DNA from: a virus
Taxonomy: Duplodnaviria > Caudoviricetes
Length of the DNA stretch: 63,832 nt
Direction: 5' to 3' (one strand)
Virus record (IMG/VR): IMGVR_UViG_3300050150_000093
Span: 1 to 63,832 of that record
A model generated the notes under the pieces. It worked only from the letters and a program-made list of their open reading frames with translations. It was not told the DNA's origin and made no database searches. Position 1 is the first letter of the stretch. The number at the start of each line of letters is the position of its first letter. The translations under genes and the position numbers were made by a program. This document shows positions 1 to 14,765 of this stretch, piece by piece.

Positions 1-1
1 G

Positions 2-175
2 TACAAGGTGAACGGCACTTTGTTCGTTAAGGCAACGCAGGATTACGACAAAGCTGTGGTCTTCATGATGGCGGCTTACAACGAGGGCGCCAACAAAGTC
101 AACATGTTCAAGGACGGTAAGTGGAACACGTCAATGAAGCGTCGCGGGTTCTGGTTGAAACTCTTTGGCTGGTAA
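2..175 (+). CDS. Hypothetical early protein, 5'-partial (YKVNGTLF...LKLFGW*)
   Basis: Frame open from the window edge to TAA 173-175; codon style matches neighbouring early genes. Confidence 0.6.
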   Translation, partial: YKVNGTLFVKATQDYDKAVVFMMAAYNEGANKVNMFKDGKWNTSMKRRGFWLKLFGW

Positions 176-178
176 CTG

Positions 179-207
179 TTGCCCTGAACCCTGTGTAGGG
201 CTATAAG
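179..207 (+). promoter_or_regulatory. Early sigma70-type promoter inside an inverted repeat
   Basis: TTGCCC-17nt-TATAAG; arms TGTTGCCCT 177-185 and AGGGCAACA 208-216. Confidence 0.7.
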
Positions 208-231
208 AGGGCAACAACTGGAGGACACATC

Positions 232-411
232 ATGAACGCTGAGAACATTGAGAACACCCTGAAGGAAATCTTCTCGGAAGCGATTGAGGATGGTGTCTTC
301 AGTAACGTTCGCTCCTTCGAGGAAGCGATGATCCTGAGTCAGGATCGCGGTCTGGTCGTCAAGACTGTCTTCGGAGACGAGTTCCAGATCACCATCGTCC
401 AGACTCGATAG
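232..411 (+). CDS. Hypothetical phage protein, 59 aa (MNAENIE...GDEFQITIVQTR), absent from the ORF track
   Basis: GGAGG RBS upstream; ATG 232 to TAG 411; directly follows a promoter. Confidence 0.8.
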   Translation: MNAENIENTLKEIFSEAIEDGVFSNVRSFEEAMILSQDRGLVVKTVFGDEFQITIVQTR

Positions 412-420
412 GAGGACTAG

Positions 421-612
421 GTGGCCGATAAGACCTACAACCTGCAGACCTGGGATGGCGAGCAGTTCAATACGGTCCGGACAGAGGAGTCCAACATTCC
501 AGCCCTCTCGTGGCTGCAGGCTCAGGCTCGCTTCATGCCGAACTGTCCAGCGCGGGTGACTGTAACGGAAGTCCTCCAAGAATACGAGCCCACAAAGCGG
601 AAAATCCGATGA
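421..612 (+). CDS. Hypothetical early protein
   Basis: GTG start with AGGAGG RBS; stop overlaps the next ATG (ATGA). Confidence 0.75.
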   Translation: MADKTYNLQTWDGEQFNTVRTEESNIPALSWLQAQARFMPNCPARVTVTEVLQEYEPTKRKIR

Positions 613-895
613 CGTCCTATTACACCGAACTGGATGAAGACCGCGGCTGGGATGATGTCGTCGCCGAGCAGGAGCGTGAGCGAGAAGAGGGTCGTCGTCT
701 AGCCCGTTTTAAGCCGGCTGAGTACGCGATCGCCAAGGGGCGGCTGTAGGCACCAGGGTCGTCTGTGCAGCGTGTTCTAAGGCGTTTCTGAAGCGTTCAT
801 ACCAGCAGGCATTCTGCTCTAACAAGGGCAGGGGCAACTGCAAAGACGCCTATTGGAATTTGGTTAAGCCTCGGGGCATTGCCCTGTTGACCTAG
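609..895 (+). pseudogene. Frameshifted small Zn-finger protein (CxxC...SYQQAFC...CKDAYWN)
   Basis: ORF 609-749 stops early; the -1 frame (722-895) has no start codon and encodes CAACSKAFLKRSYQQAFCSNKGRGNCKDAYWN; the frames join at AAGGGG 735-740. Confidence 0.6.
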
Positions 896-915
896 AATTG
901 CGTCTAGGCTATAAC
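887..915 (+). promoter_or_regulatory. Early sigma70-type promoter inside an inverted repeat
   Basis: TTGACC-17nt-TATAAC; arms TGCCCTGTT 880-888 / AACAGGGCA 913-921 and CCTAGA 891-896 / TCTAGG 903-908. Confidence 0.8.
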
Positions 916-939
916 AGGGCATCAACTGGAGAGACGCCT

Positions 940-1152
940 ATGCACCATTATCGTCTTCGAGCCGGCAAGGACACCATCTTTCTCCGGACCAAAGCTGTCC
1001 TGGAAACGGCTTCCGAGCAAGTCGGCAAGCTCGTGAAGGAAGCGCAATATCAGGTCGAGCTCATTGCTCCCACAGATATCGCCTCTCTGCAACAGGCCAA
1101 CGCCTACTTCAAGAAGTGCGGTATGGCTCCGTCGAATATCCGCTTGACCTGA
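940..1152 (+). CDS. Hypothetical early protein (MHHYRL...)
   Basis: ATG 940 with GGAG RBS downstream of the promoter; the longer TTG start lies inside the promoter. Confidence 0.75.
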   Translation: MHHYRLRAGKDTIFLRTKAVLETASEQVGKLVKEAQYQVELIAPTDIASLQQANAYFKKCGMAPSNIRLT

Positions 1153-1172
1153 CCTCCGTTCTATCGGATAAG
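1144..1172 (+). promoter_or_regulatory. Early promoter
   Basis: TTGACC-17nt-GATAAG, same family. Confidence 0.7.
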
Positions 1173-1203
1173 AGGGCATAGGTTAACACGTCAAGGATCC
1201 AAC

Positions 1204-1428
1204 ATGCATTTTCTGACTTGCGTTGTCTTTTCTGGTGCCTTTGGGTATGTTGCGTACGCCACCGGAAAGCACGCTATCGAATACGGCCATGCGGCTGATC
1301 TGGCGGCATTCCTACATAAGCCTGTTATGGAACACAAATATGCCCACGCGGCAAATATGTTCTTGATCTTGATGGCGGTTTCCGCTATATTGGCGGCAGG
1401 ATCACTCTTATATGGAATCTTTGGATGA
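1204..1428 (+). CDS. Small membrane protein
   Basis: Two hydrophobic segments; AAGGA RBS. Confidence 0.7.
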   Translation: MHFLTCVVFSGAFGYVAYATGKHAIEYGHAADLAAFLHKPVMEHKYAHAANMFLILMAVSAILAAGSLLYGIFG

Positions 1429-1589
1429 GCATTGGTACAAACCGCAACCCCGCTAACACGATGTCGGCAGCAGAGATGCGCCAGAGGGCTCGTGAGTATC
1501 GGGACAAGGGTCTGCACGAGCTGGCGAAGGGGCTGGAGAGTTCAGCCAAGCGTCAGGAGAAGAAAGAGAAAGACAACAAAATTCGCTAG
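1425..1589 (+). CDS. Hypothetical basic protein, 54 aa (MSIGTNRN...)
   Basis: ATGA overlap with the previous gene; read manually. Confidence 0.6.
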   Translation: MSIGTNRNPANTMSAAEMRQRAREYRDKGLHELAKGLESSAKRQEKKEKDNKIR

Positions 1590-1615
1590 CTTTTAGCATA
1601 GGTGTTTTTTTCCTG

Positions 1616-1644
1616 TTGACTCGAAATCCGGAATATCGGATAAA
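1616..1644 (+). promoter_or_regulatory. Early promoter
   Basis: tttcctgTTGACT-17nt-GATAAA. Confidence 0.8.
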
Positions 1645-1667
1645 GGGGCTTCACAAGGAGATACCCT

Positions 1668-1820
1668 ATGAAGACTGTTCAAGTGACGTTCCAGATCAGG
1701 GACGAAGATAACGAGGTTGACTTCGTCGAGGCTCTCAAAGAGAAGTTCGGTGTCGTCGACTGCGAAGATCCTGGCCTGGCGGAAGAGTACGTACTCAATG
1801 CCATCGTAGGCATCGTCTAA
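1668..1820 (+). CDS. Hypothetical acidic protein, 50 aa (MKTVQVTF...)
   Basis: AAGGAG RBS; ATG 1668 to TAA 1820; lies between two promoters. Confidence 0.75.
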   Translation: MKTVQVTFQIRDEDNEVDFVEALKEKFGVVDCEDPGLAEEYVLNAIVGIV

Positions 1821-1830
1821 AAGTTTCCTG

Positions 1831-1859
1831 TTGATTTCCGATCTAGAATATCGGATCAA
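1831..1859 (+). promoter_or_regulatory. Early promoter inside a perfect 16-bp inverted repeat
   Basis: TTGATT-17nt-GATCAA; arms GTTGATTTCCGATCTA 1830-1845 / TAGATCGGAAATCAAC 1860-1875. Confidence 0.7.
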
Positions 1860-1889
1860 TAGATCGGAAATCAACCTCGGAGAACGACT

Positions 1890-2228
1890 ATGAGTCGCAA
1901 GGCCAGCCCGCTTCAGAAGTGGCGCAAAGACTACAACGCAATTTCGAGCGGCATCAGGATCGTGAAGCATCACGCTCGTATCACTCAAGCCGTGGTGGTC
2001 AGCCAACTCAAGGACCTGATCCCGGAGAACGATCACAATGCCGACCCGGCAATCATCAAGGCGATCAGGCGCCGGCAGAACAAGCCTCTGGCGCTGAATC
2101 TGCGGACCCTCTCGGTCATGCGGGCCCAGGCGCGCGAGATGATGGAGACCCGATCTGAAGCCGTTCTCCGGTCGCGTCTCCTGGCGGACAAGCGCTATGA
2201 GGCCCGTCAGGCTGCCCTGACCAAGTAG
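1890..2228 (+). CDS. Hypothetical basic early protein
   Basis: GGAG RBS; GC3-rich ORF. Confidence 0.8.
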   Translation: MSRKASPLQKWRKDYNAISSGIRIVKHHARITQAVVVSQLKDLIPENDHNADPAIIKAIRRRQNKPLALNLRTLSVMRAQAREMMETRSEAVLRSRLLADKRYEARQAALTK

Positions 2229-2244
2229 GCTCTGAATTTTCCTG

Positions 2245-2273
2245 TTGATCTGAAATCCATTCCATCGGATAAA
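2245..2273 (+). promoter_or_regulatory. Early promoter inside a perfect 13-bp inverted repeat
   Basis: TTGATC-17nt-GATAAA; arms TTTCCTGTTGATC 2238-2250 / GATCAACAGGAAA 2275-2287. Confidence 0.75.
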
Positions 2274-2295
2274 GGATCAACAGGAAAGATTCAAT

Positions 2296-2754
2296 ATGTT
2301 GTGGGAAGACGCGCCAATGACCTTGATCAAGGTGACCCTACCAGAAGAGCCGGCTCCGATCTTCGAGATCCAGATCAGCCATCCTATCACGGCCCGTCGA
2401 CTGGGTGACCTGATGTGCACGGGGATGGAAAGTCCGTACAGCCCCTGGCTGGCGAACGTGGAACCGGTATCGCCCTTCCAAGAGATTGAAGGTGATGACA
2501 CCTGGTACTACTCTGAGCGGTTCTTCTCGGACCCGGACTTCCGCTTCAAGGCGTCCTTTGACGGGAATGACGATGAAGAGGGGTCTTTCGGCTCCTCTAA
2601 GGAAGTCGGTCTGGATGACGTCAAGAAGGCCCTCCAACTGATGGCTGAGCACAACAAGGACGCCTTCCGGGACTTCGTCGACGAGACTGACGATGCGGGC
2701 ACGGCGGACGTCTTTCTACAATACCTCTTCCTCGGCGAGGAGATCTACGGCTAG
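2296..2754 (+). CDS. Acidic hypothetical phage protein
   Basis: C-terminal DAGTADVFLQYLFLGEEIYG resembles a DA-x-AD-x-LQ-x-GE-x-YG motif recalled from uncharacterised phage proteins. Confidence 0.8.
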   Translation: MLWEDAPMTLIKVTLPEEPAPIFEIQISHPITARRLGDLMCTGMESPYSPWLANVEPVSPFQEIEGDDTWYYSERFFSDPDFRFKASFDGNDDEEGSFGSSKEVGLDDVKKALQLMAEHNKDAFRDFVDETDDAGTADVFLQYLFLGEEIYG

Positions 2755-2996
2755 TGTCTAAAGATCAAGCGTTGATGGCTGGCATCTCAGCGCAGGAGAA
2801 TCTGCAGGCAGATGTTAGACGTCTCATCAAGGCCTCTCCTCTATCGGAAGAGGAAGTAGGATTCGGTGCAGGGATTAGTAACCATACATTGAAGACCGCA
2901 TTGTATGGTCATCCATCAAAGATGACAACTCTAGTGGCCGGACAGATCGTCCGAGCCCTTGGAAACAGGCTCACGTGGAGCTTTGATCCAATTTGA
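2754..2996 (+). CDS. XRE-like helix-turn-helix protein
   Basis: LSEEEVGFGAGIS...IVRALGNRL; aligns by eye with the N-terminus of 5040-5708. Confidence 0.65.
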   Translation: MSKDQALMAGISAQENLQADVRRLIKASPLSEEEVGFGAGISNHTLKTALYGHPSKMTTLVAGQIVRALGNRLTWSFDPI

Positions 2997-3000
2997 CTAC

Positions 3001-3143
3001 GCTGCCCCGGCTCGGAAGGACGAGCGCCAATAGAGCCGACCTCCTAGGATTAGGCTTGCGGGTCATAGAGCGAAACGGAGGGGTGGTCCTAGGCTGCGCC
3101 CTCCCGAGTAGGCCGAAGCAGGTGTCGAGTCCTGCGGGCAGCA
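3001..3143 (+). ncRNA. tRNA-like RNA with an expanded (~90 nt) central region
   Basis: Acceptor GCTGCCC/GGGCAGC plus A; D arm GCTC-GGAAGGAC-GAGC; T arm GCAGG-TGTCGAGT-CCTGC; no normal anticodon arm. Confidence 0.7.
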
Positions 3144-3154
3144 CAAGAGACTAT

Positions 3155-3265
3155 CGAGCTAGACGCAGTTGACTTGCAACGGTCAGTAGGGTAAGTGCCC
3201 GCTGCTATAGAAACACGCGGGCGAGTGCCCAAGTACCTGGGTGCGAATCCCGGCTGGCTCGACCA
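3155..3265 (+). ncRNA. tRNA-like RNA with encoded CCA
   Basis: 8-bp acceptor CGAGCTAG/CTGGCTCG plus A-CCA; T arm CTGGG-TGCGAAT-CCCGG; long internal stem including GCCCGC/GCGGGC. Confidence 0.7.
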
Positions 3266-3293
3266 TACATTGTCCTATAGGAAAGTCCACGCC

Positions 3294-3425
3294 ATGAAGA
3301 TCATCTTTGCTGTTGCCCTGGCTGTCTTGGCTACGGCTTGTACAACGGCTCCTAAGCCTACCTCCCTGGCGGCTCTTTCCTGTCTCCCGAACCTGGAGAT
3401 GACGGCAACGGGACCCTGCCAATAG
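3294..3425 (+). CDS. Small lipoprotein, 43 aa
   Basis: MKIIFAVALAVLATA-C signal peptide and lipobox; AGGA RBS. Confidence 0.75.
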   Translation: MKIIFAVALAVLATACTTAPKPTSLAALSCLPNLEMTATGPCQ

Positions 3426-3557
3426 ATGTTGAGTCCCGTACGCTTCTGGGGCCATCCAGACAACTGGAGTGATAAGACCTGGAAGGAATATATGATGTTG
3501 ACCATGAGCGGTAAGCCATGGCACAGATTTCTTTGTTGGCTTTGGAATTTGAGCTGA
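3426..3557 (+). CDS. Trp-rich hypothetical protein, 43 aa
   Basis: ATG immediately after the previous stop; ends before the next promoter. Confidence 0.5.
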   Translation: MLSPVRFWGHPDNWSDKTWKEYMMLTMSGKPWHRFLCWLWNLS

Positions 3558-3565
3558 TTTTCCGG

Positions 3566-3594
3566 TTGACCTTTTAGCCTGTTCAAGGGATAAA
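3566..3594 (+). promoter_or_regulatory. Early promoter
   Basis: ttccggTTGACC-17nt-GATAAA. Confidence 0.75.
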
Positions 3595-3620
3595 GGGATA
3601 ACGAATAACGGAGAACAGCC

Positions 3621-4013
3621 ATGTTCAAGAAAGTTGCCTTCATTGCCCTCGCCGTCTCCGCTATTGCGGGTGCGGCCCAGGCTACCAATCTGCCCCGCTT
3701 CAACGAGGGCGAGCCCTTTGCGGTCGCTCGGACGCGTATCATCAAAGCCGGCTTTGTTCCCTTCCCTATGCGGGCGAAGGCGGACAATGAGAAGTGCGCC
3801 AAGTACTGCACGGTGTATCCGGAAGTGATCATGTGCATCAAGGAGATCAGCAACTACTGCCGGTTCTCCTATATCAAACCGACGGCGAATGGTCCTGTGA
3901 TCATCGTCCTGGCCACTGAGGGGACGGACCCCAAGATCGTGGACGCCGGAGAGATCCAGGAAGAAGAAGTCGACGCCTTGATTGCGCGCCGGGAACGTTT
4001 CGAAGGGAAGTAA
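3621..4013 (+). CDS. Secreted/periplasmic Cys-containing protein
   Basis: Sec signal peptide MFKKVAFIALAVSAIAGAAQA; four Cys; GGAG RBS. Confidence 0.8.
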   Translation: MFKKVAFIALAVSAIAGAAQATNLPRFNEGEPFAVARTRIIKAGFVPFPMRAKADNEKCAKYCTVYPEVIMCIKEISNYCRFSYIKPTANGPVIIVLATEGTDPKIVDAGEIQEEEVDALIARRERFEGK

Positions 4014-4022
4014 CACTATACC

Positions 4023-4187
4023 ATGAAGGACCTAGTTGAATTCCTTGTAGCGTTGCTATTGTCAACGTGGCCTATAGGAACCATGGTCCTTTGGCATAGT
4101 GGAGCGCGGCCTTTCATTTCTTTGATATGGCCCCTGGCGCTGCTATACTGGTACATGCGTAACTGGTTGTCCTTAAAGACCAGCTGA
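4023..4187 (+). CDS. Small membrane protein, 54 aa (MKDLVEFL...)
   Basis: Hydrophobic ORF filling the gap between genes; read manually. Confidence 0.5.
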   Translation: MKDLVEFLVALLLSTWPIGTMVLWHSGARPFISLIWPLALLYWYMRNWLSLKTS

Positions 4188-4201
4188 ACAAAGGGAAGTG
4201 A

Positions 4202-4534
4202 ATGTCTGAATACGTTTCGCACTTCGTCTGGGTTAAGTTCCGGTCAAAGCATTCCTCCGGTCCGGGTCAATGGCACTGGGAGGAAGTCGAATTCGATACA
4301 CCTAATCCAACTGAGAAGCAACTGGTTTCTTGGCTCGAGGAGAAGGACTACGAGTGGAACACCGGCTCCGAGCACTGGCGCGGGATGGAAGGCTTCTTTG
4401 AGGAGCCGCCGCTCAAAGAGGCGGAAAAGAACGTCGTATATGCGGCTTCAGACATCTTGCGGGCCCAGGCACGACTCGAGCGCGGGAAGGCGCTTCTAGC
4501 GCGTTTAAAAGCGACTGAGGATGCACATGTCTAA
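4202..4534 (+). CDS. Hypothetical protein
   Basis: ORF in the tightly packed + strand array. Confidence 0.75.
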   Translation: MSEYVSHFVWVKFRSKHSSGPGQWHWEEVEFDTPNPTEKQLVSWLEEKDYEWNTGSEHWRGMEGFFEEPPLKEAEKNVVYAASDILRAQARLERGKALLARLKATEDAHV

Positions 4535-4805
4535 AGGTAAAGTCTTCATCAAAGATCCCGAAGCGGCTCTGGCGATCGATCAAGGGCTCCGAGCACCTTA
4601 TGACGGTGATACAAATGTAACCGTCTGGGCGCATATGGCTGCCCTGGGCGTCATGCACGAGATGCAGCGCCGATCGGGACTTGGCGACGTCTTGGATGAA
4701 TTGGATGATGACTTGCGTAAAGAGCTGGTCGATAAAGTCAAGCGGATCATTACTCAAGCATCCTCAATAGCCTCGCAGGCCCCAGGTAGACCTTATGAAG
4801 ACTAA
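4527..4805 (+). CDS. Hypothetical protein (MSKGKV...)
   Basis: GAGG RBS before ATG 4527. Confidence 0.75.
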   Translation: MSKGKVFIKDPEAALAIDQGLRAPYDGDTNVTVWAHMAALGVMHEMQRRSGLGDVLDELDDDLRKELVDKVKRIITQASSIASQAPGRPYED

Positions 4806-5043
4806 AGCTCCGAATGGGCCCAATTGTCATCGTTGCGGGTTTCGAGATTGTTCGTACCGTGATAGACAAGACTTTGCTGGATGCGAAGCTGATGGAGCCT
4901 TTATACCGAGTCGTTCGGTTTCACAGGGACCCAGCTATATTAGCTACCCTGGGTTGGACGAGCGGGAAAGTCTCAACGAGTTTGTCTTCGAGAACTTTCA
5001 AACGGAAAGCGACTATATTGGATTTGAAGTTGGTGATCAATGA
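4795..5043 (+). CDS. Hypothetical protein with CxxC
   Basis: Overlaps both neighbours; CHRC...C...C. Confidence 0.6.
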   Translation: MKTKAPNGPNCHRCGFRDCSYRDRQDFAGCEADGAFIPSRSVSQGPSYISYPGLDERESLNEFVFENFQTESDYIGFEVGDQ

Positions 5044-5708
5044 CTAAAGCCCCTACTACCAATGAGCTGATGATAGCTGAATACATGGCGGAAGAAGAGT
5101 TGCAGGGACTCGTCCGCCAAGCTTGTAACGAGTCTGGACTAGACCGACCAGAGATCGCTAAACGTCTTAATATGGGTGCACACCGACTCGCAAGATACCT
5201 CAATCACCCCAATTGCAGGCTCACAGTAAAGCAGGCAGCTAACATCCTGCGAGCAATAGGACAACGGTTAATCTTTACTACACAAGCAATAGACAAGCCT
5301 CCGGGCTGGGATGCGGCCATGGCTGAACCTTATCCTTTTGTTCGCCTTATTCCAGGAAGTATAGACATCACGGCTATTAAGCCGGAAGATGAGATCTGGG
5401 TAAAGCTCAAGGTTAAAGAAATCTGGGGCACCAATATGACGGGGACCTGGGTTAAAGCATATGTTAGCAATTGGGAGGTTCTTAATTTCTCAGCTAAAGA
5501 CATCGTTTACCATATTCCTGCTCCAGAGCCTGTTATAGTAGAAGAGCCTTTAGCAGTTGGTGATTGGGCTGAAGGTTGGCGTGGTAGTACAATGATCGGC
5601 GGCTATCCTATTGCGGTAATTGATACCGGTCGTGCATACTGGCGGGATAAGCATGGGGTCCTCAACGGGGGAGTACTGTTGCAGCACCTCAAGAGAGTAA
5701 AGACGTAA
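5040..5708 (+). CDS. XRE-like HTH protein with a C-terminal domain of unknown function
   Basis: SGLDRPEIAKRLNMGAHRLARYL...LTVKQAANILRAIGQRL. Confidence 0.7.
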   Translation: MTKAPTTNELMIAEYMAEEELQGLVRQACNESGLDRPEIAKRLNMGAHRLARYLNHPNCRLTVKQAANILRAIGQRLIFTTQAIDKPPGWDAAMAEPYPFVRLIPGSIDITAIKPEDEIWVKLKVKEIWGTNMTGTWVKAYVSNWEVLNFSAKDIVYHIPAPEPVIVEEPLAVGDWAEGWRGSTMIGGYPIAVIDTGRAYWRDKHGVLNGGVLLQHLKRVKT

Positions 5709-5812
5709 TGCTTCATACCATCTTTATGTGGCCCGGTCTCCCGTACATTGTACTAGCTGTAGGCATGTTTATATCCATGTCTATTTGGTGGTGGGCAACC
5801 TTTAAACGTTGA
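5708..5812 (+). CDS. Small membrane peptide, 34 aa
   Basis: TAATG coupling; one hydrophobic helix. Confidence 0.5.
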   Translation: MLHTIFMWPGLPYIVLAVGMFISMSIWWWATFKR

Positions 5813-5820
5813 GATAAGAT

Positions 5821-6102
5821 ATGGGTGACTACGCTGACGGCATTATAGACGACGGGATCTTTGAAGACTTCGGATCTATACTTGATACTTCTTATGGGAT
5901 GGGGCGCTTAGGGTTTAAGCAACCGAAGAAGTGTCGGTCATGCGGCTATGGTGGTCTCTACTGGGGCAAGGAAGATAACAAGTGGCGTCTGTACCACTAT
6001 ACCTTGCTGTACACAATGAAGCAGCCCGAGTTTGTTTTACATCGCTGCGGGTTTAAATCCGACGGCACACCTGTAGAGAAAAGCAATGAATCTCTGGAAT
6101 AA
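5821..6102 (+). CDS. Hypothetical Zn-binding protein
   Basis: CRSC...LYW...W-L...HRC. Confidence 0.7.
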   Translation: MGDYADGIIDDGIFEDFGSILDTSYGMGRLGFKQPKKCRSCGYGGLYWGKEDNKWRLYHYTLLYTMKQPEFVLHRCGFKSDGTPVEKSNESLE

Positions 6103-6409
6103 ACTATTCGGTAATAAAGAGAATAAAGAAGAGCAGAACACTTCTGAGCCCACTATAGTTGATCTTCGTCATACTTATGGCCCAGTCAAATATTGGACAG
6201 CTGTTGTTCAGTATGATGCGTGGAAGCGACCTTTTGCTACCAACAAATGGGGCGATCCCATGGCTCTGGAACTTAACGGTAGTTGTTCGTCACCTTTCAC
6301 GGATTGGAAACTAAAGAGTGGCCCTCCTGTAGTGTTCACAAAAGATGATATGAGCAAGTCGTTCTTCCCACCAAAAGATTTCGGTAACAATGTCAAAGAT
6401 CCCTCCTAA
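6086..6409 (+). CDS. Hypothetical protein
   Basis: ORF in array. Confidence 0.7.
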   Translation: MNLWNKLFGNKENKEEQNTSEPTIVDLRHTYGPVKYWTAVVQYDAWKRPFATNKWGDPMALELNGSCSSPFTDWKLKSGPPVVFTKDDMSKSFFPPKDFGNNVKDPS

Positions 6410-6770
6410 ACTAGTAGAAGTAGCAGCAAGAGCTGTTGAATACTGGATCTGTAGTCCATTCGAATGGACTGAAGAACAGTTCGAGACCTGGTTCAACAAA
6501 GATCCGTTCTTCACAAAGAATAAAACCGGCTGGGGCTTCTTTGATGGGACTCGCAAAGGGAAGTTGCTAGAGGAAACCAAAATTGCCCTAGAAGCTTACG
6601 AGGCTGCTAAGGAACGTGATCCTGAAGCTCAACGTTTGAGTAGAGCAATCAAGAAGTACATCGTGGATAAAGAGGAAGCCAGGTACTGGGGCGGTCCTAC
6701 GATCGAGCCCCTGTTTCCTCTAAACGACGCAGACCTTTTAAAGCTAGCTAAGATTTTAGACAACGCTTAA
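6390..6770 (+). CDS. Hypothetical protein
   Basis: ORF ending just before a promoter. Confidence 0.7.
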   Translation: MSKIPPKLVEVAARAVEYWICSPFEWTEEQFETWFNKDPFFTKNKTGWGFFDGTRKGKLLEETKIALEAYEAAKERDPEAQRLSRAIKKYIVDKEEARYWGGPTIEPLFPLNDADLLKLAKILDNA

Positions 6771-6776
6771 TTTCCG

Positions 6777-6805
6777 TTGACTTTGGATTCGAGCCATTGG
6801 ATAAA
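6777..6805 (+). promoter_or_regulatory. Early promoter
   Basis: tttccgTTGACT-17nt-GATAAA. Confidence 0.8.
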
Positions 6806-6825
6806 GGATCAATAGGAGAATTCCA

Positions 6826-7026
6826 ATGGCTAAGAACAAGATCTTTACCTATACGTTCGGTTCGGGCTATCAAGGGATGGTCGCAGCCAAGGACGTTGAT
6901 GCAGCTCGGTTGGAAGCCAACCTTGAGCATGGACGCGCTTCGGAAGTCCGTGGAGTTCGTCTTGCCACACAGCAAGATATTTCGTGGTTCGAAGGTATGG
7001 GCGGTCGAGTGCCGAAGGTAGCTTAA
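6826..7026 (+). CDS. Hypothetical early protein
   Basis: AGGAG RBS after the promoter. Confidence 0.75.
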   Translation: MAKNKIFTYTFGSGYQGMVAAKDVDAARLEANLEHGRASEVRGVRLATQQDISWFEGMGGRVPKVA

Positions 7027-7027
7027 T

Positions 7028-7192
7028 ATGAATACACGTCTGGGTCTTCTGTATCTTGCGCACGCTGCGAATGACTTAGCGTTGTTCTATACTATGTTGC
7101 GTCAAGACACTCCCCGACTAAGGCGAGAAGGGCGACTACACGAAGCGTATCTTTGGAACAAACGAGCTGCTAAACTGTTGAGGGTATCATGA
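7028..7192 (+). CDS. Hypothetical protein, 54 aa (MNTRLGLL...)
   Basis: Fills the gap; ATGA overlap with the LysM gene. Confidence 0.5.
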   Translation: MNTRLGLLYLAHAANDLALFYTMLRQDTPRLRREGRLHEAYLWNKRAAKLLRVS

Positions 7193-7389
7193 TTTGTTTT
7201 CTATCTATTGCATTGCCTTGTTGTGTGGTAAAACCCGGCGACACTTTATCAGAAATTGGGCAACGATTCAAGCGGTCTTGGCGGGCGCTAGCTGCAGTGA
7301 ATTCAATTCGTAATCCAGACCTTATCTTCCCGGGTCAAGTATTGAGGTTGGATACTCCTCGGGTATCCAATACCTACAATGACCGTTGA
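7189..7389 (+). CDS. Stand-alone LysM peptidoglycan-binding protein
   Basis: VVKPGDTLSEIGQRF...LAAVNSIRNPDLIFPGQVLRL matches the LysM consensus. Confidence 0.9.
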   Translation: MICFLSIALPCCVVKPGDTLSEIGQRFKRSWRALAAVNSIRNPDLIFPGQVLRLDTPRVSNTYNDR

Positions 7390-8032
7390 TCTGTTCAAAG
7401 TAAAGCAAATTGGGTTTGTGCCTTCGTATCAACGTGCGGGCATCTTATCATTAGACGAAGTGCATGATCTTCTTCCTGATTGGGAAGTTGTTGATGTGTA
7501 TCTTCCGGTGATCAAATACGCTAGCCGATATGACCGCGGTCAAAACATCAATCGTTCTGTGGAAGTGTTCCATGGGCACGAGATCTATATGGACTCTAGT
7601 CGGTACCGATTGTTCCAAAGGGATCACGTTTGCTGTTCGTGTGGTATTGCTGGAGCATATTATGCCGTCGAACGCAACACCAAATGGTCAAGACGGCAAA
7701 AGAGGCCTCTAATTGCAGAAGGTCAACATTGGCACCTTAACTTGTACGCTGTACGAAATGGTGTAGAAGTTATGATGACTAAAGATCACCATATCCCACG
7801 TTCGCGGGGTGGCGCTGATCATGACAGCAACTACGTACCAATGTGCTCAACGTGCAACAAGCTAAAGAGCAATAGGTTGCCTGGCGAATCGGACGAAGAG
7901 TATGAAGCGTTCCTCTTAGCACGAGGCGGCCTCACGCAGTCGAAAGAGCAACGCAAACAAGAACAGTTAAAACGCGGCAGAGAAGCTTTAGCGTTAGCTA
8001 ACCTCTGTAGCGAAGGCACGATGGATTTATGA
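7379..8032 (+). CDS. HNH endonuclease
   Basis: CCSC...TKDHHIPRSRGGADHDSNYVPMCSTCNKLK. Confidence 0.85.
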   Translation: MTVDLFKVKQIGFVPSYQRAGILSLDEVHDLLPDWEVVDVYLPVIKYASRYDRGQNINRSVEVFHGHEIYMDSSRYRLFQRDHVCCSCGIAGAYYAVERNTKWSRRQKRPLIAEGQHWHLNLYAVRNGVEVMMTKDHHIPRSRGGADHDSNYVPMCSTCNKLKSNRLPGESDEEYEAFLLARGGLTQSKEQRKQEQLKRGREALALANLCSEGTMDL

Positions 8033-8409
8033 CAAAGAAACAAGTAACGGTTCAAGTAGGAAACAATCCAAAGATATCTCAATACTACGGGAGTGGTGGA
8101 GAATATCTCGATTACGGCTATGGACGACGGTTAAGGCCTGACTCTACTATCAGTGAGCTTCAGGAGCAACTTTCTGAATTATACGCTGAGTTTGCTGCTG
8201 AGTACTCTGAATTGCACTTCCAAAGAATGGACGATTGTGGGTGTCGAGATCATATGTGTGGTTGTGCTCCTTCCTACGTTCTTTATGGCACTCGTGAAGA
8301 AACGGATCTTGAATATAAGTTCCGCACCAAGCGGGAAGCAGATCAGAAGGCCGACAGAGAGAAGCGCGAACGGGCTGAATTAGCTGCTCTAAAGGCAAAG
8401 TACGGTTAA
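8029..8409 (+). CDS. Hypothetical protein
   Basis: ATGA overlap; Cys cluster; coiled-coil C-terminus. Confidence 0.75.
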   Translation: MTKKQVTVQVGNNPKISQYYGSGGEYLDYGYGRRLRPDSTISELQEQLSELYAEFAAEYSELHFQRMDDCGCRDHMCGCAPSYVLYGTREETDLEYKFRTKREADQKADREKRERAELAALKAKYG

Positions 8410-8421
8410 CGACTTTTCTGC

Positions 8422-8450
8422 TTGACTTCAGATCAAAATTGTCCTATAAA
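8422..8450 (+). promoter_or_regulatory. Early promoter, probably giving a leaderless mRNA
   Basis: TTGACT-17nt-TATAAA; ATG at 8457 with no SD. Confidence 0.7.
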
Positions 8451-8456
8451 TGATCT

Positions 8457-8654
8457 ATGGCAAAGATTCTAATCGAGATCGAATTCAATGAGGGAGTTGC
8501 GGACGCTCATGATCCGCAACTCCTAGTGGTGTCAATGCTGGCTCAATATCCAATTAGACGGATGTTGGTATGTCGGCCAATGACAGGGTTCTTAGCAACC
8601 CTGACCCCGGAACAACTAGCCATGGCTATGGCATATGAAGGTCCGGAATACTGA
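8457..8654 (+). CDS. Hypothetical protein
   Basis: ORF after promoter; TGATG coupling to the next gene. Confidence 0.65.
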   Translation: MAKILIEIEFNEGVADAHDPQLLVVSMLAQYPIRRMLVCRPMTGFLATLTPEQLAMAMAYEGPEY

Positions 8655-8875
8655 TGGCTGGAGAGTTGAGCGCACTAGCAGAACTAACTACTATTCAAAT
8701 AGCTTCGTTGGCTGCAATAGACACTTATGCAATGCAGCTTTACAATGATACAGATCCAGGCCCATATGATCGGTGGCCTACTATAAGGCTCAAGGTTAGA
8801 CAAGACTATAGACGCCTTGCTGCAAAGCTGATTAAAGAAGCATACGATACCGCGGCCGACTGCGATAGGGGATAA
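8654..8875 (+). CDS. Hypothetical protein
   Basis: Translationally coupled ORF. Confidence 0.65.
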   Translation: MAGELSALAELTTIQIASLAAIDTYAMQLYNDTDPGPYDRWPTIRLKVRQDYRRLAAKLIKEAYDTAADCDRG

Positions 8876-8879
8876 CCGA

Positions 8880-9203
8880 ATGACCGTAGAGGAAAAGGCT
8901 AAACAGCTATTCCCTTCGCGGCCCGATCTAGCACTGCTTTATACACTAAGTGCTCACAGTCAGCAAGGCGACGCTGGTGCCACCGCCCAGTTAAAAGCAC
9001 TAAAGGATCCGTGTGCTAAGCACAAACTAGATTCAAACGCCGGTGAAGCGTGGTCTCTATCTTTAGCGGCTGGACGGCTCCAAAAGTATGCTCGAGGAGA
9101 CAGCCCCTATATTGGTGACTTTGCAATGCGTGCTGATATGCAGCAGGTGTTTGGCGCCCTTAAGCAAGTAAATATAGAACCTTACCATTTTGGCTTTCTT
9201 TAA
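8880..9203 (+). CDS. Hypothetical protein
   Basis: ORF in array. Confidence 0.65.
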   Translation: MTVEEKAKQLFPSRPDLALLYTLSAHSQQGDAGATAQLKALKDPCAKHKLDSNAGEAWSLSLAAGRLQKYARGDSPYIGDFAMRADMQQVFGALKQVNIEPYHFGFL

Positions 9204-9254
9204 TGTCAAAGACCATTCCGCCAACCACAGCAATTAAAATTAACAAATTGGATA

Positions 9255-9509
9255 GTGATGTTTAACTTTAGTCTCGATGCGGAAAATATACACAACCACT
9301 TTTATGCTGGCATAACTTTCGCCTGCATCCTTGGTTTTATTGTAGCAATGTGTATTCATATTAAAGCCATTGGGATTGGGATTGCTACCACTTTAGCAAT
9401 TGCAGTAATGTTGGTGGCCGCGTATTACACGTTAGCGTTGTTTGGCTTCATTGTAGTTTGGGTTTTTGGAACAGTTGGCCACATCATCAAATCTGCCCGT
9501 AGAGTATAA
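9255..9509 (+). CDS. Membrane protein
   Basis: Two to three hydrophobic helices. Confidence 0.65.
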   Translation: MMFNFSLDAENIHNHFYAGITFACILGFIVAMCIHIKAIGIGIATTLAIAVMLVAAYYTLALFGFIVVWVFGTVGHIIKSARRV

Positions 9510-9678
9510 ACTACCTCCTCTGCTGATAAAGAGATCTAAGGGCTCAACTACACCCGATAGCTACTTTATCGACATAGCGTATAAAGCGCTGCAGAAGGTT
9601 AACATGCTTGACGCAGCCGTCGAACAAGTCATCATTATCGAAGACAAACTCGTAAACATTATAACAGGTAAACCATGA
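9466..9678 (+). CDS. Hypothetical protein (start uncertain)
   Basis: ATGA overlap with the next gene. Confidence 0.5.
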   Translation: MEQLATSSNLPVEYKLPPLLIKRSKGSTTPDSYFIDIAYKALQKVNMLDAAVEQVIIIEDKLVNIITGKP

Positions 9679-9866
9679 CATTTACAATTGCATTCGGTTG
9701 GTGGATCCTTCCACTCACAATTACCATCGGCAGTTTTGTGCTCGCTACCTTGTGTTCAAGGTCTATCAGTAGAGTTGATTTCTATGGTATCGTCGCTTTG
9801 GTTTACAACACGTTAGCAATTATAGTGTCGCTAATAGCTTGGCTGATTTGGGCGCTCTGTAATTAA
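9675..9866 (+). CDS. Small two-TM membrane protein
   Basis: GWWILPLTITI...IVSLIAWLIWAL. Confidence 0.75.
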   Translation: MTFTIAFGWWILPLTITIGSFVLATLCSRSISRVDFYGIVALVYNTLAIIVSLIAWLIWALCN

Positions 9867-9890
9867 TTTTACAAAACGTTTAAATTGCTG

Positions 9891-9919
9891 TTGACTACGT
9901 CTCATTAGTAGGGGATAAT
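9891..9919 (+). promoter_or_regulatory. Early promoter inside an imperfect (G-U) hairpin
   Basis: ctgTTGACT-17nt-GATAAT; GACTAC/GTGGTC and CATTA/TAATG arms. Confidence 0.75.
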
Positions 9920-9953
9920 GCTGTGTGGTCCCCAGATATAGTATAAGGTTTAG

Positions 9954-10292
9954 ATGATAGAATATCTCATTGGTATGGTGATCACAGGTCTTATCCTGTT
10001 CGGTCTACCGGCCGTACCCTTCCTTAAAGGTAAGCTGTGGTTTACTAGCTATTTTGATTTTAGCGACGTGATGCTATGGTGCATTGCAGGAACAATCGTC
10101 TGGCCTTTAACATTCTTATGCGTCGCTGGTGGCTTCGCTGTTATGAGTCCGTTTATGCTGCTATTCTGGATACTAGAAAAGTTCCCAAATATTGGCCCGT
10201 TCTTAAGAAACCTCTATGGTGTTAAGGATAAGGTCCCTGATGAGGACGAGGAAGAGGACGAGCAAAAAACATACTCATTGAGGAGCTTTTAA
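9954..10292 (+). CDS. Membrane protein with acidic tail
   Basis: Two to three TM segments; DEDEEEDE. Confidence 0.75.
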   Translation: MIEYLIGMVITGLILFGLPAVPFLKGKLWFTSYFDFSDVMLWCIAGTIVWPLTFLCVAGGFAVMSPFMLLFWILEKFPNIGPFLRNLYGVKDKVPDEDEEEDEQKTYSLRSF

Positions 10293-10384
10293 TGTCTCCA
10301 AGAGAGCATGAAACAGCATTCTGGTTTAGCATCGCACTTCTCATATCCGCAATAGCAATTATCGTTTCTTTAGTAGTTCGTTAG
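10292..10384 (+). CDS. Small membrane peptide, 30 aa
   Basis: GAGGAG RBS; TAATG coupling. Confidence 0.55.
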   Translation: MSPREHETAFWFSIALLISAIAIIVSLVVR

Positions 10385-10389
10385 GTATC

Positions 10390-10548
10390 ATGTATTACAA
10401 TTATTCGCTTCTGTTTAAGCCTGTAGGTAAAGAACAAAGGGTCATTCCTTTAAAGGGTAAGACGTACGATGAGGTTAACCAAATGTGGAAAGACCTCAAT
10501 AAAGAATACCCAGAGTCTACAACACTTGTTGCGGACCTAATCCCGTAA
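10390..10548 (+). CDS. Hypothetical protein, 52 aa (MYYNYSLL...)
   Basis: Read manually; AGGT RBS. Confidence 0.55.
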   Translation: MYYNYSLLFKPVGKEQRVIPLKGKTYDEVNQMWKDLNKEYPESTTLVADLIP

Positions 10549-10552
10549 GCTT

Positions 10553-10560
10553 CATAAATA
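10553..10560 (+). promoter_or_regulatory. gp55-type late promoter
   Basis: CATAAATA upstream of AAGGAG RBS. Confidence 0.65.
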
Positions 10561-10577
10561 CCCCAAAAGGAGTTTTT

Positions 10578-10952
10578 ATGAAACCGGATCCAGCACTAAA
10601 CAGTTTAATCCTAAGTGTAGTAAATGAAAATGTTGTGCCTTTCGGTGGAGGCACAACACGTCATATGTGGACAGTGAAACATCTATATGTTTCTAACCAC
10701 GATGACGATATGCACACACCAACAATCATTCACTCTAAACAAGTAGATCTCCCAAACGTACCGTCAATGCATGATCAGCATGTTAAGATGTTGACAAATA
10801 AGTTTGGCGATGAAATGAAAACTGTTTACCCAACTGGTGAACATACTATCCAGCATGGAACGTTGACTGGTACATCGTTGAGAGCTACACACTTCGTGGA
10901 CACAGAACGTGGCCAGCATACCTTTACCCACCATTTCAGTAAAATTGGTTAA
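10578..10952 (+). CDS. His-rich late protein, possibly an internal head protein
   Basis: Late promoter and strong RBS; 13 His in 124 aa. Confidence 0.7.
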   Translation: MKPDPALNSLILSVVNENVVPFGGGTTRHMWTVKHLYVSNHDDDMHTPTIIHSKQVDLPNVPSMHDQHVKMLTNKFGDEMKTVYPTGEHTIQHGTLTGTSLRATHFVDTERGQHTFTHHFSKIG

Positions 10953-11125
10953 TGCAACACCTTTACAATACTTCGAATAAATCATGGAAATCTCTAGCGA
11001 TTCGGCTTTCTTGGGCAATCATGCGAAACAGCCAGAAAGCGATTCAAGAAACCCTTGAAATCATTGAACAAAAAAAGGTGATAGATGAAGGAAGCCTCTT
11101 GAAATCGCCAGAGATTTCCGGGTAA
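10952..11125 (+). CDS. Hypothetical protein, 57 aa (MQHLYNTS...)
   Basis: TAATG coupling; read manually. Confidence 0.5.
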   Translation: MQHLYNTSNKSWKSLAIRLSWAIMRNSQKAIQETLEIIEQKKVIDEGSLLKSPEISG

Positions 11126-11134
11126 ATTTAACTG

Positions 11135-11168
11135 TTGATATTTTTCGTCGGATCTGCTAGACTAAATA
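11135..11168 (+). promoter_or_regulatory. Composite early/late promoter
   Basis: ctgTTGATA-17nt-TAGACT overlapping CTAAATA, which sits in the loop of TGCTAG/CTAGCA. Confidence 0.55.
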
Positions 11169-11174
11169 CTAGCA

Positions 11175-11468
11175 ATGATGACAGATAAATTTGAAGTAGA
11201 ACGACGGTTCTACGAAGACGTAGCGAAACTCTTGAATACGGAATACGATTATAAACCGTTTCCGTGGGCGAGACGTAATCGGTGGAACAATAGACATCCT
11301 GGTAACGGGAGATATCCATCCTTTGGACTAGTACGTATGTTCTCACCAACCTTAGTACACGTGCAGCTGTACAGTCCGTCGCGGCTGTCAGCTTTTTTTA
11401 ATTCTACAGAAGCGGCGCTTGATGCGATCCGAAGTATAACGAATGTTCGGGATACCCCGTCTGATTAA
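11175..11468 (+). CDS. Hypothetical phage protein
   Basis: RWNNRHPGNGRYPSFGLVRMF motif. Confidence 0.75.
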   Translation: MMTDKFEVERRFYEDVAKLLNTEYDYKPFPWARRNRWNNRHPGNGRYPSFGLVRMFSPTLVHVQLYSPSRLSAFFNSTEAALDAIRSITNVRDTPSD

Positions 11469-11679
11469 ACGTTCTGTTAGTATCGCTGGTTCATCCACTT
11501 CGGTGATGTTAGAACCAGAGTTCTGGACGGTGCTTGAAACTATGGCAGTTGAGAAAGAACTCCTGCTATCCAAACTACTCTGGGAAATTGATATGGACCG
11601 CAGACACAGAAGTCTAGCTTCTGCGTGCCGTATTGCGTGTTTAAAATGGGCTCTAGCCAAATCAAGGAAAGCTGATTAA
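11443..11679 (+). CDS. Ribbon-helix-helix protein, RHH_4-like
   Basis: KRSVSIAG-x-TSVMLEPEFW...EID...RSLASACR. Confidence 0.8.
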   Translation: MFGIPRLIKRSVSIAGSSTSVMLEPEFWTVLETMAVEKELLLSKLLWEIDMDRRHRSLASACRIACLKWALAKSRKAD

Positions 11680-12818
11680 TGTTGCACCCTAAGCTGTTCA
11701 AGAAAGACTCAAAGGGCCGTGCTCGGTTCTGGCAAATTGAAGATGATGAGACTGGAATGTTTCGGAGTCTATCGGGTCTCGTCGAAGGCAATAAAGTCAA
11801 GACAGATGAATGGACTCTTGTGGAGATCAAGAACAAAGGTCGTGCTAATGAAACGACTCTAGTCGGTCAAGCGAAAGCTGAGATCGCTTCTTTGTATCAA
11901 AAGAAGCGCGACAATCACTACGTTGACGATATCTCTAAGATCCACGAAGAGCGTGCTTACTTTGAGGTGATGCTGGCTGAGTCGTATGACGACTATGGTA
12001 AGAATTTGGATTGGAAAGCTGGTGTATATGTTCAGCCTAAACTAGATGGTATCCGTGGGCCTACAAAGGCTTCAGGAACTCTATCACGTAAGGGTACGTT
12101 CTTCCCAACTGTTCAATTCCTATCTCAGGAAGTACTAGCTCCGCTATTCAAAGTTTGTCCGAATGTGGTCCTAGATGGTGAACTGTACAACCACAAGTTC
12201 CGAGACGACTTCAACGAGATCTCGTCTATCATTAAGCGTGAGAAAGCTAAGCCAGAAGATATGGCTAAGGCTCGTGAGTTAGTTCAGCTTTACGTTTACG
12301 ATGCATATTTTCCTGATGAGCCGGATATGAAGTTCATCGACCGTTACAATAAGATCAAGGATTTGATTGAGAAGCACGTGCATCTCTTCAATCCAGATGC
12401 TATTGTCATAGTTCCTACCTTCTTAGTTCATTCCCCTGAAGAAGCTGATGCACTATACGATCAGTTTATCGATGAAGAGTTTGAAGGACAAATGCTTCGT
12501 GTTAACACGGAGTACTTCTTCAAGCGAGTGCAGACGTTGCTAAAGCGTAAAGACTTCATCGATGGTGAATTCCGACTAGTTGATATTCTTCCCGGTAAGG
12601 GTAACTGGTCTGGAGTGGCAAAGAAGGTTCGAGCACTTCTACCAGATGGTAGAGAATTTGGAGCTGGTTGTAAAGGTAAGAAAGAGTTCCTAAGAGATAT
12701 CCTTTCTAATAAGGAAGAATACACTTGGGCAACCATTACGTACTTCAAACCTACTCCAGATGGCATTCCTAGGTTCCCTCGAGTGAAGACGTTCTTCAAG
12801 GGCGAACGGAACGATTAA
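11679..12818 (+). CDS. 30: ATP-dependent DNA ligase (gp30-like)
   Basis: QPKLDGIR, LDGELY, EGQMLR, LLKRK and PRFP motifs. Confidence 0.95.
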   Translation: MLHPKLFKKDSKGRARFWQIEDDETGMFRSLSGLVEGNKVKTDEWTLVEIKNKGRANETTLVGQAKAEIASLYQKKRDNHYVDDISKIHEERAYFEVMLAESYDDYGKNLDWKAGVYVQPKLDGIRGPTKASGTLSRKGTFFPTVQFLSQEVLAPLFKVCPNVVLDGELYNHKFRDDFNEISSIIKREKAKPEDMAKARELVQLYVYDAYFPDEPDMKFIDRYNKIKDLIEKHVHLFNPDAIVIVPTFLVHSPEEADALYDQFIDEEFEGQMLRVNTEYFFKRVQTLLKRKDFIDGEFRLVDILPGKGNWSGVAKKVRALLPDGREFGAGCKGKKEFLRDILSNKEEYTWATITYFKPTPDGIPRFPRVKTFFKGERND

Positions 12819-12831
12819 TTTTTAAACGCTG

Positions 12832-12860
12832 TTGACATGTGTAGTTGATTGTGCTATTAT
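12832..12860 (+). promoter_or_regulatory. Sigma70-type promoter overlapped by a perfect 14-bp inverted repeat
   Basis: TTGACA-17nt-TATTAT; arms ATGTGTAGTTGATT 12837-12850 / AATCAACTACACAT 12869-12882. Confidence 0.8.
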
Positions 12861-12891
12861 AGTGCTTTAATCAACTACACATTTCAGAGTA

Positions 12892-13716: not shown

Positions 13717-13767
13717 TCATCCTACGACCATACAACATATTAACATACGATTATAAGGAAATACAAA

Positions 13768-14709: not shown

Positions 14710-14732
14710 GATATAGCCTTAGTTAACTATTG

Positions 14733-14765
14733 AAAAGGCCGGAGAGCAATCTCCGGCCTTTTTTT
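14733..14765. terminator. Bidirectional intrinsic terminator
   Basis: AAAAGGCCGGAGA-GCAA-TCTCCGGCCTTTTTTT between convergent genes. Confidence 0.92.

Follow-up and report, generated by a model that had tools for sequence, protein, structure and literature searches.

Early promoters enclosed by stem-loops in a T4-like phage contig from leaf litter: possible masking of ribosome-binding sites in read-through RNA

Early promoters embedded in stem-loops have been described in the T4-type phages RB49/phi1, PST/T4 and nt-1/KVP40 as promoter-early stem-loops, or PeSLs (Arbiol et al. 2010, PMC2839356; Comeau et al. 2014, PMC4122927). As these two papers describe it, a PeSL comprises a sigma-70-like promoter, an AT-rich tract with an upstream stop codon, a variably placed stem-loop, a Shine-Dalgarno (SD) sequence and a start codon; the copies are conserved over about 100 bp, and the roles proposed for them are those of terminators or attenuators and of linkers for modular shuffling (PMC2839356, PMC4122927). 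PeSLs are further characterised by their place at the points where close relatives differ by insertion, deletion or replacement, and by the formation of mini-circles. In the main text of PMC2839356 the words "translation" and "ribosome" are both absent. Another precedent is given by the T4 genes e, soc, 49 and I-TevI, whose ribosome-binding site (RBS) is described as masked in long early transcripts; the RNA that is translated starts at a late promoter contained in the 5′ portion of the fold (PMC3014915). The present work concerns twelve early promoters embedded in stem-loops, an already described kind of element, in IMG/VR virus record IMGVR_UViG_3300050150_000093 (positions 1 to 63,832). This partial genome, a single contig of 63,832 bases, was analysed over its whole length and is called the window.

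We propose, with moderate confidence, that these promoters belong to PeSL-type cassettes in which a multi-helix stem encloses the promoter and would mask the RBS in read-through RNA. Each cassette would comprise a host-type early promoter, a stem-loop, an SD and a start codon, amid small orphan genes. The 5′ side of the stem would lie on or upstream of the −35 box and the spacer, and its 3′ side would begin at the discriminator and the predicted transcription start site (TSS) and reach the SD or AUG. Since in all cassettes the predicted TSS, about 7 nt past the −10, comes after the 5′ arm, the cassette's own mRNA would lack that arm, could not form the stem and would be freely translated; the stem would form only in RNA arriving from upstream promoters. 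Such read-through RNA is expected, because canonical terminators are absent between the promoters. Left untranslated, it may then be exposed to Rho-dependent attenuation, which would bring the masking into line with reports that PeSL stems behave like terminators, the stems here being free of U-tracts.

The promoter array

The initial annotation had proposed twelve sigma-70-type promoters, and all of them were found where it had placed their −35 boxes, with a 17-nt spacer in 12/12. The −10 is (G/T)ATAA-like in all 12, and its end is 6–34 nt from the ATG. A weight matrix made from the 12 promoters scored them at 19.5–32 bits, and the runner-up in the 63.8 kb, both strands included, was a site of 16.2 bits within a gene. 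The AT content of positions −25 to −1, upstream of the −35, exceeds the local mean in 10 of the 12 cassettes; in 11 of them an upstream stop codon is at most 26 nt from the −35, and the stems sit between cistrons. An SD and an ATG are present in ten cassettes, and the other two (P8422 and P11135, designated as all the others by the first position of the −35) are leaderless or almost so. The cassette copies have a median pairwise identity of 0.40, and the longest exact run in common is 14 nt.

All 12 cassettes are within the first 12.9 kb, among small open reading frames (ORFs) of orphan type, which constitute a hyperplastic region. Every gene from position 1 to 14709 is on the + strand, and 16 of the 21 ORFs tested in 1–14.7 kb have no Pfam family. 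The G+C content is 52–56% over the first 4 kb and drops to about 41% past 10 kb, and the −10 regions are of the GGATAAAGG type in the GC-rich part and TATAAT-like in the AT-rich part. The sequence suggests that the left end may have been acquired from a GC-richer source.

A scan of viral contigs with the promoter pattern gave 16 single matches, 13 of which look like chance. The remaining three of the 16 (L002, 4216–4300; L008, − strand, near 371; L015, − strand, near 8390) are related viral contigs of 52–54% G+C with one shared promoter and leader, cctgTTGACG-N17-GATAAAgggnCATCAAnCGGAGA, which resembles P887 and P179 closely and well past the searched pattern. No homology was found between the proteins of these three contigs and those of the early genes of the window. 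The likeness could reflect convergence on the promoter and leader optimum of one host, or a shared cassette.

Folding of the cassettes and strand preference

Two shuffle tests were applied to the folding. In the first, the −35, the −10 and the "ctg" of the 12 promoters were held fixed and the three other segments were shuffled. This check against shuffles that keep the promoter boxes, which the initial annotation had put forward, gave p < 0.05 in 7 of the 12 promoters (P179, P887, P1831, P2245, P3566, P6777 and P12832), with a mean z of −2.68; the other five (P1144, P1616, P8422, P9891 and P11135) did not reach this level. The second test used an independent folding tool and 200 dinucleotide shuffles for 8 of the 12 promoters. 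At most 1/200 shuffles was as stable as the native sequence in five of the eight (P887, P1831, P2245, P3566 and P12832; z −3.8 to −5.9), and P179 (20/200), P1616 (25/200) and P6777 (9/200) were weak (z −1.2 to −1.8).

The cassettes are listed below, with the p value of the first test, the z value of the dinucleotide shuffles, or both. The five pairs of perfect arms reported in the initial annotation are all exact, and the pair at 880/913, given there as 9 bp, was measured as 10 bp.

P179: 162–234, + strand; −35 179–184 (TTGCCC), −10 202–207, predicted TSS near 214, ATG 232; helices 177–185/208–216 (9 bp, perfect), 189–192/197–200, 169–173/217–221 and 162–165/222–225 (touching the SD); p = 0.046, z −1.27 (weak)
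P887: 870–942, + strand; −35 887–892, −10 910–915, ATG 940; helices 880–889/912–921 (10 bp, perfect) and 891–896/903–908 (6 bp, perfect); p = 0.004, z −4.14
P1144: 1144–1206, + strand; −35 1144–1149 (overlapping the end of the upstream ORF), −10 1167–1172, ATG 1204; weak pairing with G-U pairs, 1144–1151/1179–1186; p = 0.27
P1616: 1597–1670, + strand; −35 1616–1621, −10 1639–1644, ATG 1668; helices 1597–1602/1665–1670 (on the AUG, CATAGG with CCTATG), 1609–1614/1656–1661 (TTTCCT with the SD AGGAGA) and 1626–1630/1637–1641; z −1.22
P1831: 1824–1892, + strand; −35 1831–1836, −10 1854–1859, ATG 1890; helices 1830–1845/1860–1875 (16 bp, perfect) and 1824–1828/1879–1883 (TTTCC with the SD GGAGA); z −4.23
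P2245: 2233–2298, + strand; −35 2245–2250, −10 2268–2273, ATG 2296; perfect arms 2238–2250/2275–2287 (13 bp); helices 2233–2240/2286–2293, 2241–2251/2274–2284 (on the SD AGGAAA) and 2255–2258/2267–2270; outer pairing over the SD region, TTTTCCTG with CAGGAAAG; z −5.87
P3566: 3545–3626, + strand; −35 3566–3571, −10 3589–3594, ATG 3621; helices 3558–3564/3609–3615 (TTTTCCG with the SD CGGAGAA), 3570–3576/3591–3597, 3553–3556/3616–3619 and 3545–3548/3623–3626; p = 0.012, z −3.78
P6777: 6777–6831, + strand; −35 6777–6782, −10 6800–6805, ATG 6826; helix 6792–6801/6822–6831 (10 bp, AGCCATTGGA with TCCAATGGCT) over the AUG; p = 0.036, z −1.78
P8422: 8419–8462, + strand; −35 8422–8427, −10 8445–8450, ATG 8457, without SD; mRNA predicted to be leaderless, because the ATG is 7 nt after the −10; no significant hairpin, p = 0.57
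P9891: 9877–9956, + strand; −35 9891–9896, −10 9914–9919, ATG 9954; weak pairing rich in G-U pairs, 9877–9886/9947–9956 and 9911–9916/9928–9933; p = 0.28
P11135: 11135–11177, + strand; −35 11135–11140, −10 11158–11163 (TAGACT), ATG 11175, leader of about 5 nt, without SD; helix 11156–11160/11169–11173; p = 0.08
P12832: 12826–12897, + strand; −35 12832–12837 (TTGACA), −10 12855–12860 (TATTAT), ATG 12892 of a gp33-like gene; helices 12837–12850/12869–12882 (14 bp, perfect), 12851–12856/12860–12865, 12832–12835/12884–12887 and 12826–12829/12894–12897; z −4.29

A whole-window search for repeats showed that three of the longest inverted repeats span promoters; the others with short loops and with perfect or near-perfect arms (14733, 51274 and 57938) look like terminators. 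Chimeras, in which the 5′ half came from one promoter and the 3′ half from a different one, folded at a mean of −13.1 kcal/mol, against −19.4 kcal/mol for the native cassettes, and none of 20,000 permutations reached the native mean. Together with the shuffles, the chimera test supports the earlier suggestion that selection acts on structure rather than on a common operator. The arms do differ between promoters, as had been observed, yet they are not wholly idiosyncratic: the cores GTTGAY/RTCAAC and TTTCC/GGAGA are common to them, and because of these common cores some chimeras (for example 2245 with 6777) fold as well as the natives. The pairing with G-U pairs that had been pointed out at 9893/9925 is at the level of chance (z −0.53). 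The reading of the palindromes as operators for one repressor was rejected, since the arms differ and the spacing varies. Rfam gave no match in the whole window at the gathering score, and at E ≤ 1 the sole match in 700–3350 was a chance-level miRNA match on the P2245 hairpin.

Each cassette, from position −25 to the start codon +5, was also folded as the sense strand and as its complement. The sense strand was more stable in 11 of the 12 cassettes, by a mean of −3.2 kcal/mol (t-test p = 0.011; Wilcoxon p = 0.007), and the folds contained 37 G-U pairs in the sense against 18 in the antisense strand; P3566, for example, folds at −28.2 kcal/mol in the sense and −16.7 kcal/mol in the antisense strand. 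The 27 gene junctions without promoter, taken as control, presented no asymmetry (mean 0.01 kcal/mol; 76 against 91 G-U pairs). The asymmetry in stability and in G-U pairs argues for a structure in the sense transcript and not for a DNA cruciform.

Masking of the translation initiation region and rival explanations

The cost of opening the translation initiation region (TIR), positions −15 to +3, was computed in the cassette's own transcript and in read-through RNA, with 100 shuffled-upstream controls. The rise in cost exceeded these controls in 7 of the 12 cassettes, where at most 6/100 controls reached the native value (Stouffer Z 6.1). From own transcript to read-through RNA, the cost passed from 2.8 to 16.4 kcal/mol in P2245 (z 5.9), from 3.6 to 13.1 in P12832 (z 4.9), from 4.4 to 14.0 in P1616 (z 3.9), from 5.1 to 12.8 in P3566 (z 2.4), from 5.2 to 11.0 in P1831 (z 2.15), from 5.4 to 10.2 in P6777 (z 1.96) and from 0.2 to 6.7 in P11135 (z 1.97). 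Among internal genes of the window, the same test found masking in 2/27 (Fisher p = 0.0014). In P1616, P1831, P2245 and P3566 the partner of the SD is a conserved TTTCC(T/G)G just 5′ of the −35. What the computation itself shows is the set of promoters, the stems, the sense-strand preference and an increase in opening cost that is specific to the cassettes. The concealment of the RBS in read-through RNA was one of three options in the initial annotation, and in these models it is the best supported of them, with the masking in 7/12 in its favour and the upstream-swap control, which was not significant, on the other side.

Several points weigh against this reading. No masking above the controls was found in five of the 12 cassettes (P179, P887, P1144, P8422 with z −0.5 and P9891 with z 0.0), and the count depends on the settings: 7/12 as given above, and 3/12 (Stouffer 3.9) or 6/12 (Stouffer 9.5) when start site, context and window were chosen differently. 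Upstream halves swapped between cassettes mask nearly as well as the native ones (mean unpaired 0.43 against 0.39; 3702/20,000 permutations); this fits the common anti-SD (TTTCC), and it equally means that masking is not proven to be cassette-specific. Masking cannot be the whole story, because P179 and P887 have clear stems that end short of the SD. Leaders of 14–25 nt put any 3′ arm located after the −10 near the SD, so that masking could be a by-product, and in units of several genes insulation would stop at the first. No close relatives with orthologous stems for a covariation comparison were found in the collections searched. The TSSs, the read-through RNA and the folding in vivo are predictions throughout, and a lower translation is what the masking would be expected to cause.

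The strongest rival is that of classical PeSLs, in which the stem-loops terminate or attenuate incoming RNA polymerase, as proposed and reporter-tested for RB49/phi1, and the contact with the RBS is incidental. In the reporter work described, one PeSL stem-loop, placed in a transcriptional fusion, lowered lacZ expression to an extent similar to that of rrnB T1 (PMC2839356). The stems of the window also stand directly 3′ of upstream stop codons (within 26 nt in the 11 cassettes mentioned), and those of P179 and P887 are significant without TIR masking. No arm, however, is followed by a T-run, and the loops are of 14–24 nt, whereas the three clear terminators of this phage (14733, 57938 and 51274) all have loops of 4–7 nt, the first two with T-runs. 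Besides, the masking is specific to the cassettes when these are set against the internal genes (7/12 against 2/27). This rival appears unlikely, and masking and termination would be compatible if attenuation were Rho-dependent through blocked translation. Intrinsic terminators have a GC-rich stem with a loop of 3–8 nt ahead of a T-run. A scan for them gave 11 sites against 12.8 expected, none of them at a cassette, and the intrinsic-terminator reading was rejected. One of the clear terminators stands at the end of the co-directional array, past the gp32-like gene, where the gene ends are at 14709 (+) and 14764 (−):

Two-way intrinsic terminator: 14733–14762; 13-bp perfect stem with 4-nt loop and flanking A/T runs

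The stems could also be elements of RNA processing or stability, either RNase III-type sites or hairpins protecting 3′ ends, by which the long early transcript would be divided into stable mRNAs of one gene each. In T7, RNase III processing stems are located between the early genes. The likeness to them includes the intercistronic position in a long early transcript, exactly between cistrons, and the composite stems of about 15–25 bp with internal loops (P1831, P2245, P887, P3566 and P12832), and the favoured strand is the sense RNA. Here, on the other hand, the promoter is inside the stem, the stem lengths vary widely, 5/12 cassettes are without a significant stem, and no sequence, internal-loop pattern or architecture common to the stems was found. 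We consider this explanation improbable.

A function at the level of DNA only, in which cruciforms or hairpins modulate the firing of promoters or serve as recombination hot spots and RNA folding is irrelevant, is very improbable, and the cruciforms suggested in the initial annotation are disfavoured, as they would give neither the greater stability of the sense strand in 11/12 cassettes nor its twofold G-U pairs, and as loops of 14–24 nt are known to disfavour extrusion. The early promoters of phage N4 are hairpins with a 5–7 bp stem and a 3-nt loop, used by the virion RNA polymerase on extruded DNA. The window shares with them the tie between promoter and inverted repeat, but its promoters are ordinary −35/−10 sigma-70 boxes with 17-nt spacing, in stems of 9–16 bp. 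The points in favour of a DNA-level function are the five perfect Watson-Crick arm pairs of 9–16 bp, the variant contigs that part at cassette edges, and one crossover of RB49 reported in the loop of a PeSL (PMC2839356). Exact runs common to the copies of the window are no longer than 14 bases, a poor homology for recombination.

Genomic context, population variants and comparison with described systems

Judging from its genes, the phage is a deep-branching T4-like myophage. The window contains Pfam domains of T4 type (baseplate gp6 and gp8, sheath gp18 and large terminase gp17); gp33-like, gp59-like and gp32-like genes are located 3′ of P12832, and a DNA ligase gene is upstream of it. The closest relatives in tblastn are phages of the T4 superfamily with only 35–46% amino-acid identity: Sinorhizobium phages phiM12 and phiN3, Caulobacter phage Cr30, pelagiphage HTVC008M and cyanophages. 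No close relative was found by megablast and blastn of the window against phage records, nor by ligase and terminase searches of viral contigs (best identity 45%), and a ligase search of metagenome contigs gave a single match of 34%. The stretch is contained in 13 runs, all labelled leaf litter metagenome and none of them on record as RNA.

Contigs assembled from four leaf-litter runs, and not reads, were compared with positions 1–14800. The loose ends of these contigs, 19 listed among at least 24, correspond to 16 distinct ones, and 4 of the 16 are inside cassettes, where about 0.9 would be expected (binomial p = 0.011): 177 (runs X5 and X7), 2236 (X6), 2244 (X6 and X7) and 2283 (X7). A fifth, at 873, is 2 nt outside a cassette. 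Around P2245, some contigs match the window only at 2244–2283 and differ on both sides. In X6 this stretch of 40 nt runs on into window position 1, which points to a P2245-like copy immediately before the start of the contig; X7 presents the same upstream flank and cassette, followed by a different downstream sequence. One copy outside the window matches 2244–2283 at 80% likeness or more. In X5 and X7 another sequence precedes P179 at 177. The simplest reading would be gene replacement bounded by two cassettes, and the cassettes appear to be junctions for gene exchange in the natural population. A further point against the proposal is that the junctions come from assembled contigs, the linkage between them being deduced. 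As for the stems, the changes of X5 at 3594 and 3595 swap a U-A and a U-G pair in helix 3570–3576/3591–3597 and keep the helix, and the variant 214 A>T costs the P179 stem one pair.

Other differences between runs were observed along the left end. In X5 and X7, 208 nt with ORF 421–612 (window 406–615) are replaced by 37 other letters, a replacement of a whole gene that is not bounded by promoters, and X6 skips 6394–6619. The non-coding segment 764–859, 5′ of P887, has 75–82% identity over 63–96 nt to three phages (Xanthomonas phage Xoo-sp13 and Stenotrophomonas phages CM1 and RAS14); nothing else in the first 8 kb matched a phage record at the nucleotide level. At 2997–3290 there is a GC-rich non-coding gap of 300 nt with two tandem tRNA-like elements, which have acceptor-like stems of 7–9 bp and T-loop-like GGTGTCGAGTCC / GGTGCGAATCC; the second has a CCA end near 3262, and 30 nt are missing in X6 at 3194, inside the gap. 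The reading as tRNAs was rejected, with nothing from ARAGORN at default settings, inconsistent calls at relaxed thresholds and nothing from Rfam.

The arrangement resembles that of T4 genes e and soc in the helix over the SD or AUG in upstream RNA, as in the geometry of P1616, P1831, P2245, P3566, P6777 and P12832, and in an internal promoter that is predicted to start 3′ of the 5′ strand, with the TSS about 7 nt past the −10. The difference is that the internal promoter of T4 is a late one (gp55) that delays timing, whereas here 12/12 are early promoters with −35 and −10; the effect would be an insulation of dose and not of timing. The new element would be a promoter-in-hairpin device on host-type early promoters in a tandem array. 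The exact late promoter TATAAATA has no match in the window, against 3.1 expected. ATAAATA occurs 7 times on the + and 2 times on the − strand, in several cases just 5′ of genes; the sites near genes are 24208 (before gp6), 44745, 51996, 58096 and 19587 (− strand). At 58083–58145 there is a weaker promoter of early type, TTGACT-N17-GATAAT (11 bits), upstream of an SD and ATG, with a late-like cATAAATA within the spacer.

The two masked genes among the 27 internal controls also have such hairpins. One is the gene at 10578–10952, with a hairpin at 10551–10582 (TTCATAAATACCCC / GGAGTTTTTATGAA; z −3.59) over its SD and AUG; the 5′ arm contains cATAAATA, one letter off the T4 late-promoter consensus, and the locus may be a true arrangement of T4 gene e type. 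The other is an HNH endonuclease gene (7379–8032), with a hairpin at 7331–7393 over its start codon (−26.3 kcal/mol, z −3.45) and a TIR masked by upstream sequence (z 3.1). Hairpins of this kind are reported for homing endonuclease genes of T4-type phages (PMC3014915).

The archetype phage phi1 (EF437941) was analysed by the same pipeline. With the consensus pattern there were 39 matches on the reverse strand and 1 for the control, and 11 of 29 promoter windows had z < −1.65, these windows being drawn from 30 loci and leaving out 10 further matches. The phi1 stems are inside the spacer, around the −10 (with the −10 in the loop), or outer helices that enclose the whole promoter. In the TIR test of phi1, 28 promoters included 19 with a called start, one of which was dropped for a leader above 90 nt, and masking was found in 1 of the remaining 18 (Fisher p = 0.0025).

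The cassettes of the window share with the PeSLs the T4-type phage background, the dense array of sigma-70-like N17 promoters among small orphan genes, the AT-rich tract with an upstream stop, a stem-loop that overlaps the promoter and is followed by SD and start codon, and, as it appears from the assembled contigs, variants that part at the cassette edges. They differ in that the stems are individually distinct, not of the GGGG...CCCC type, and mostly span the whole promoter with loops of 14–24 nt. Their copies, about 40% identical in the median and with at most 14 exact shared bases, diverge from the conservation over about 100 bp described for PeSLs, and read-through TIR masking was found in 7/12 here against 1/18 in phi1. 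With this comparison PeSLs, described in a few T4-type groups, are extended to an uncultured and very distant T4-like lineage of leaf litter, where their working principle may be a different one, in that the promoter-enclosing stem would insulate translation. More tentatively, the cassettes might be self-insulating portable units, each with an orphan gene, its own promoter and an anti-SD segment (TTTCC or an idiosyncratic arm) 5′ of the TSS. The gene would be translated only from its own promoter anywhere in the tandem array, read-through RNA would stay untranslated and be attenuated by Rho, and the edges would be the points of exchange. If true, such units would explain both the exchange at cassette edges and the terminator-like behaviour of PeSL stems that have no U-tracts, giving a mechanism for the latter, and they would constitute natural, context-independent expression cassettes.

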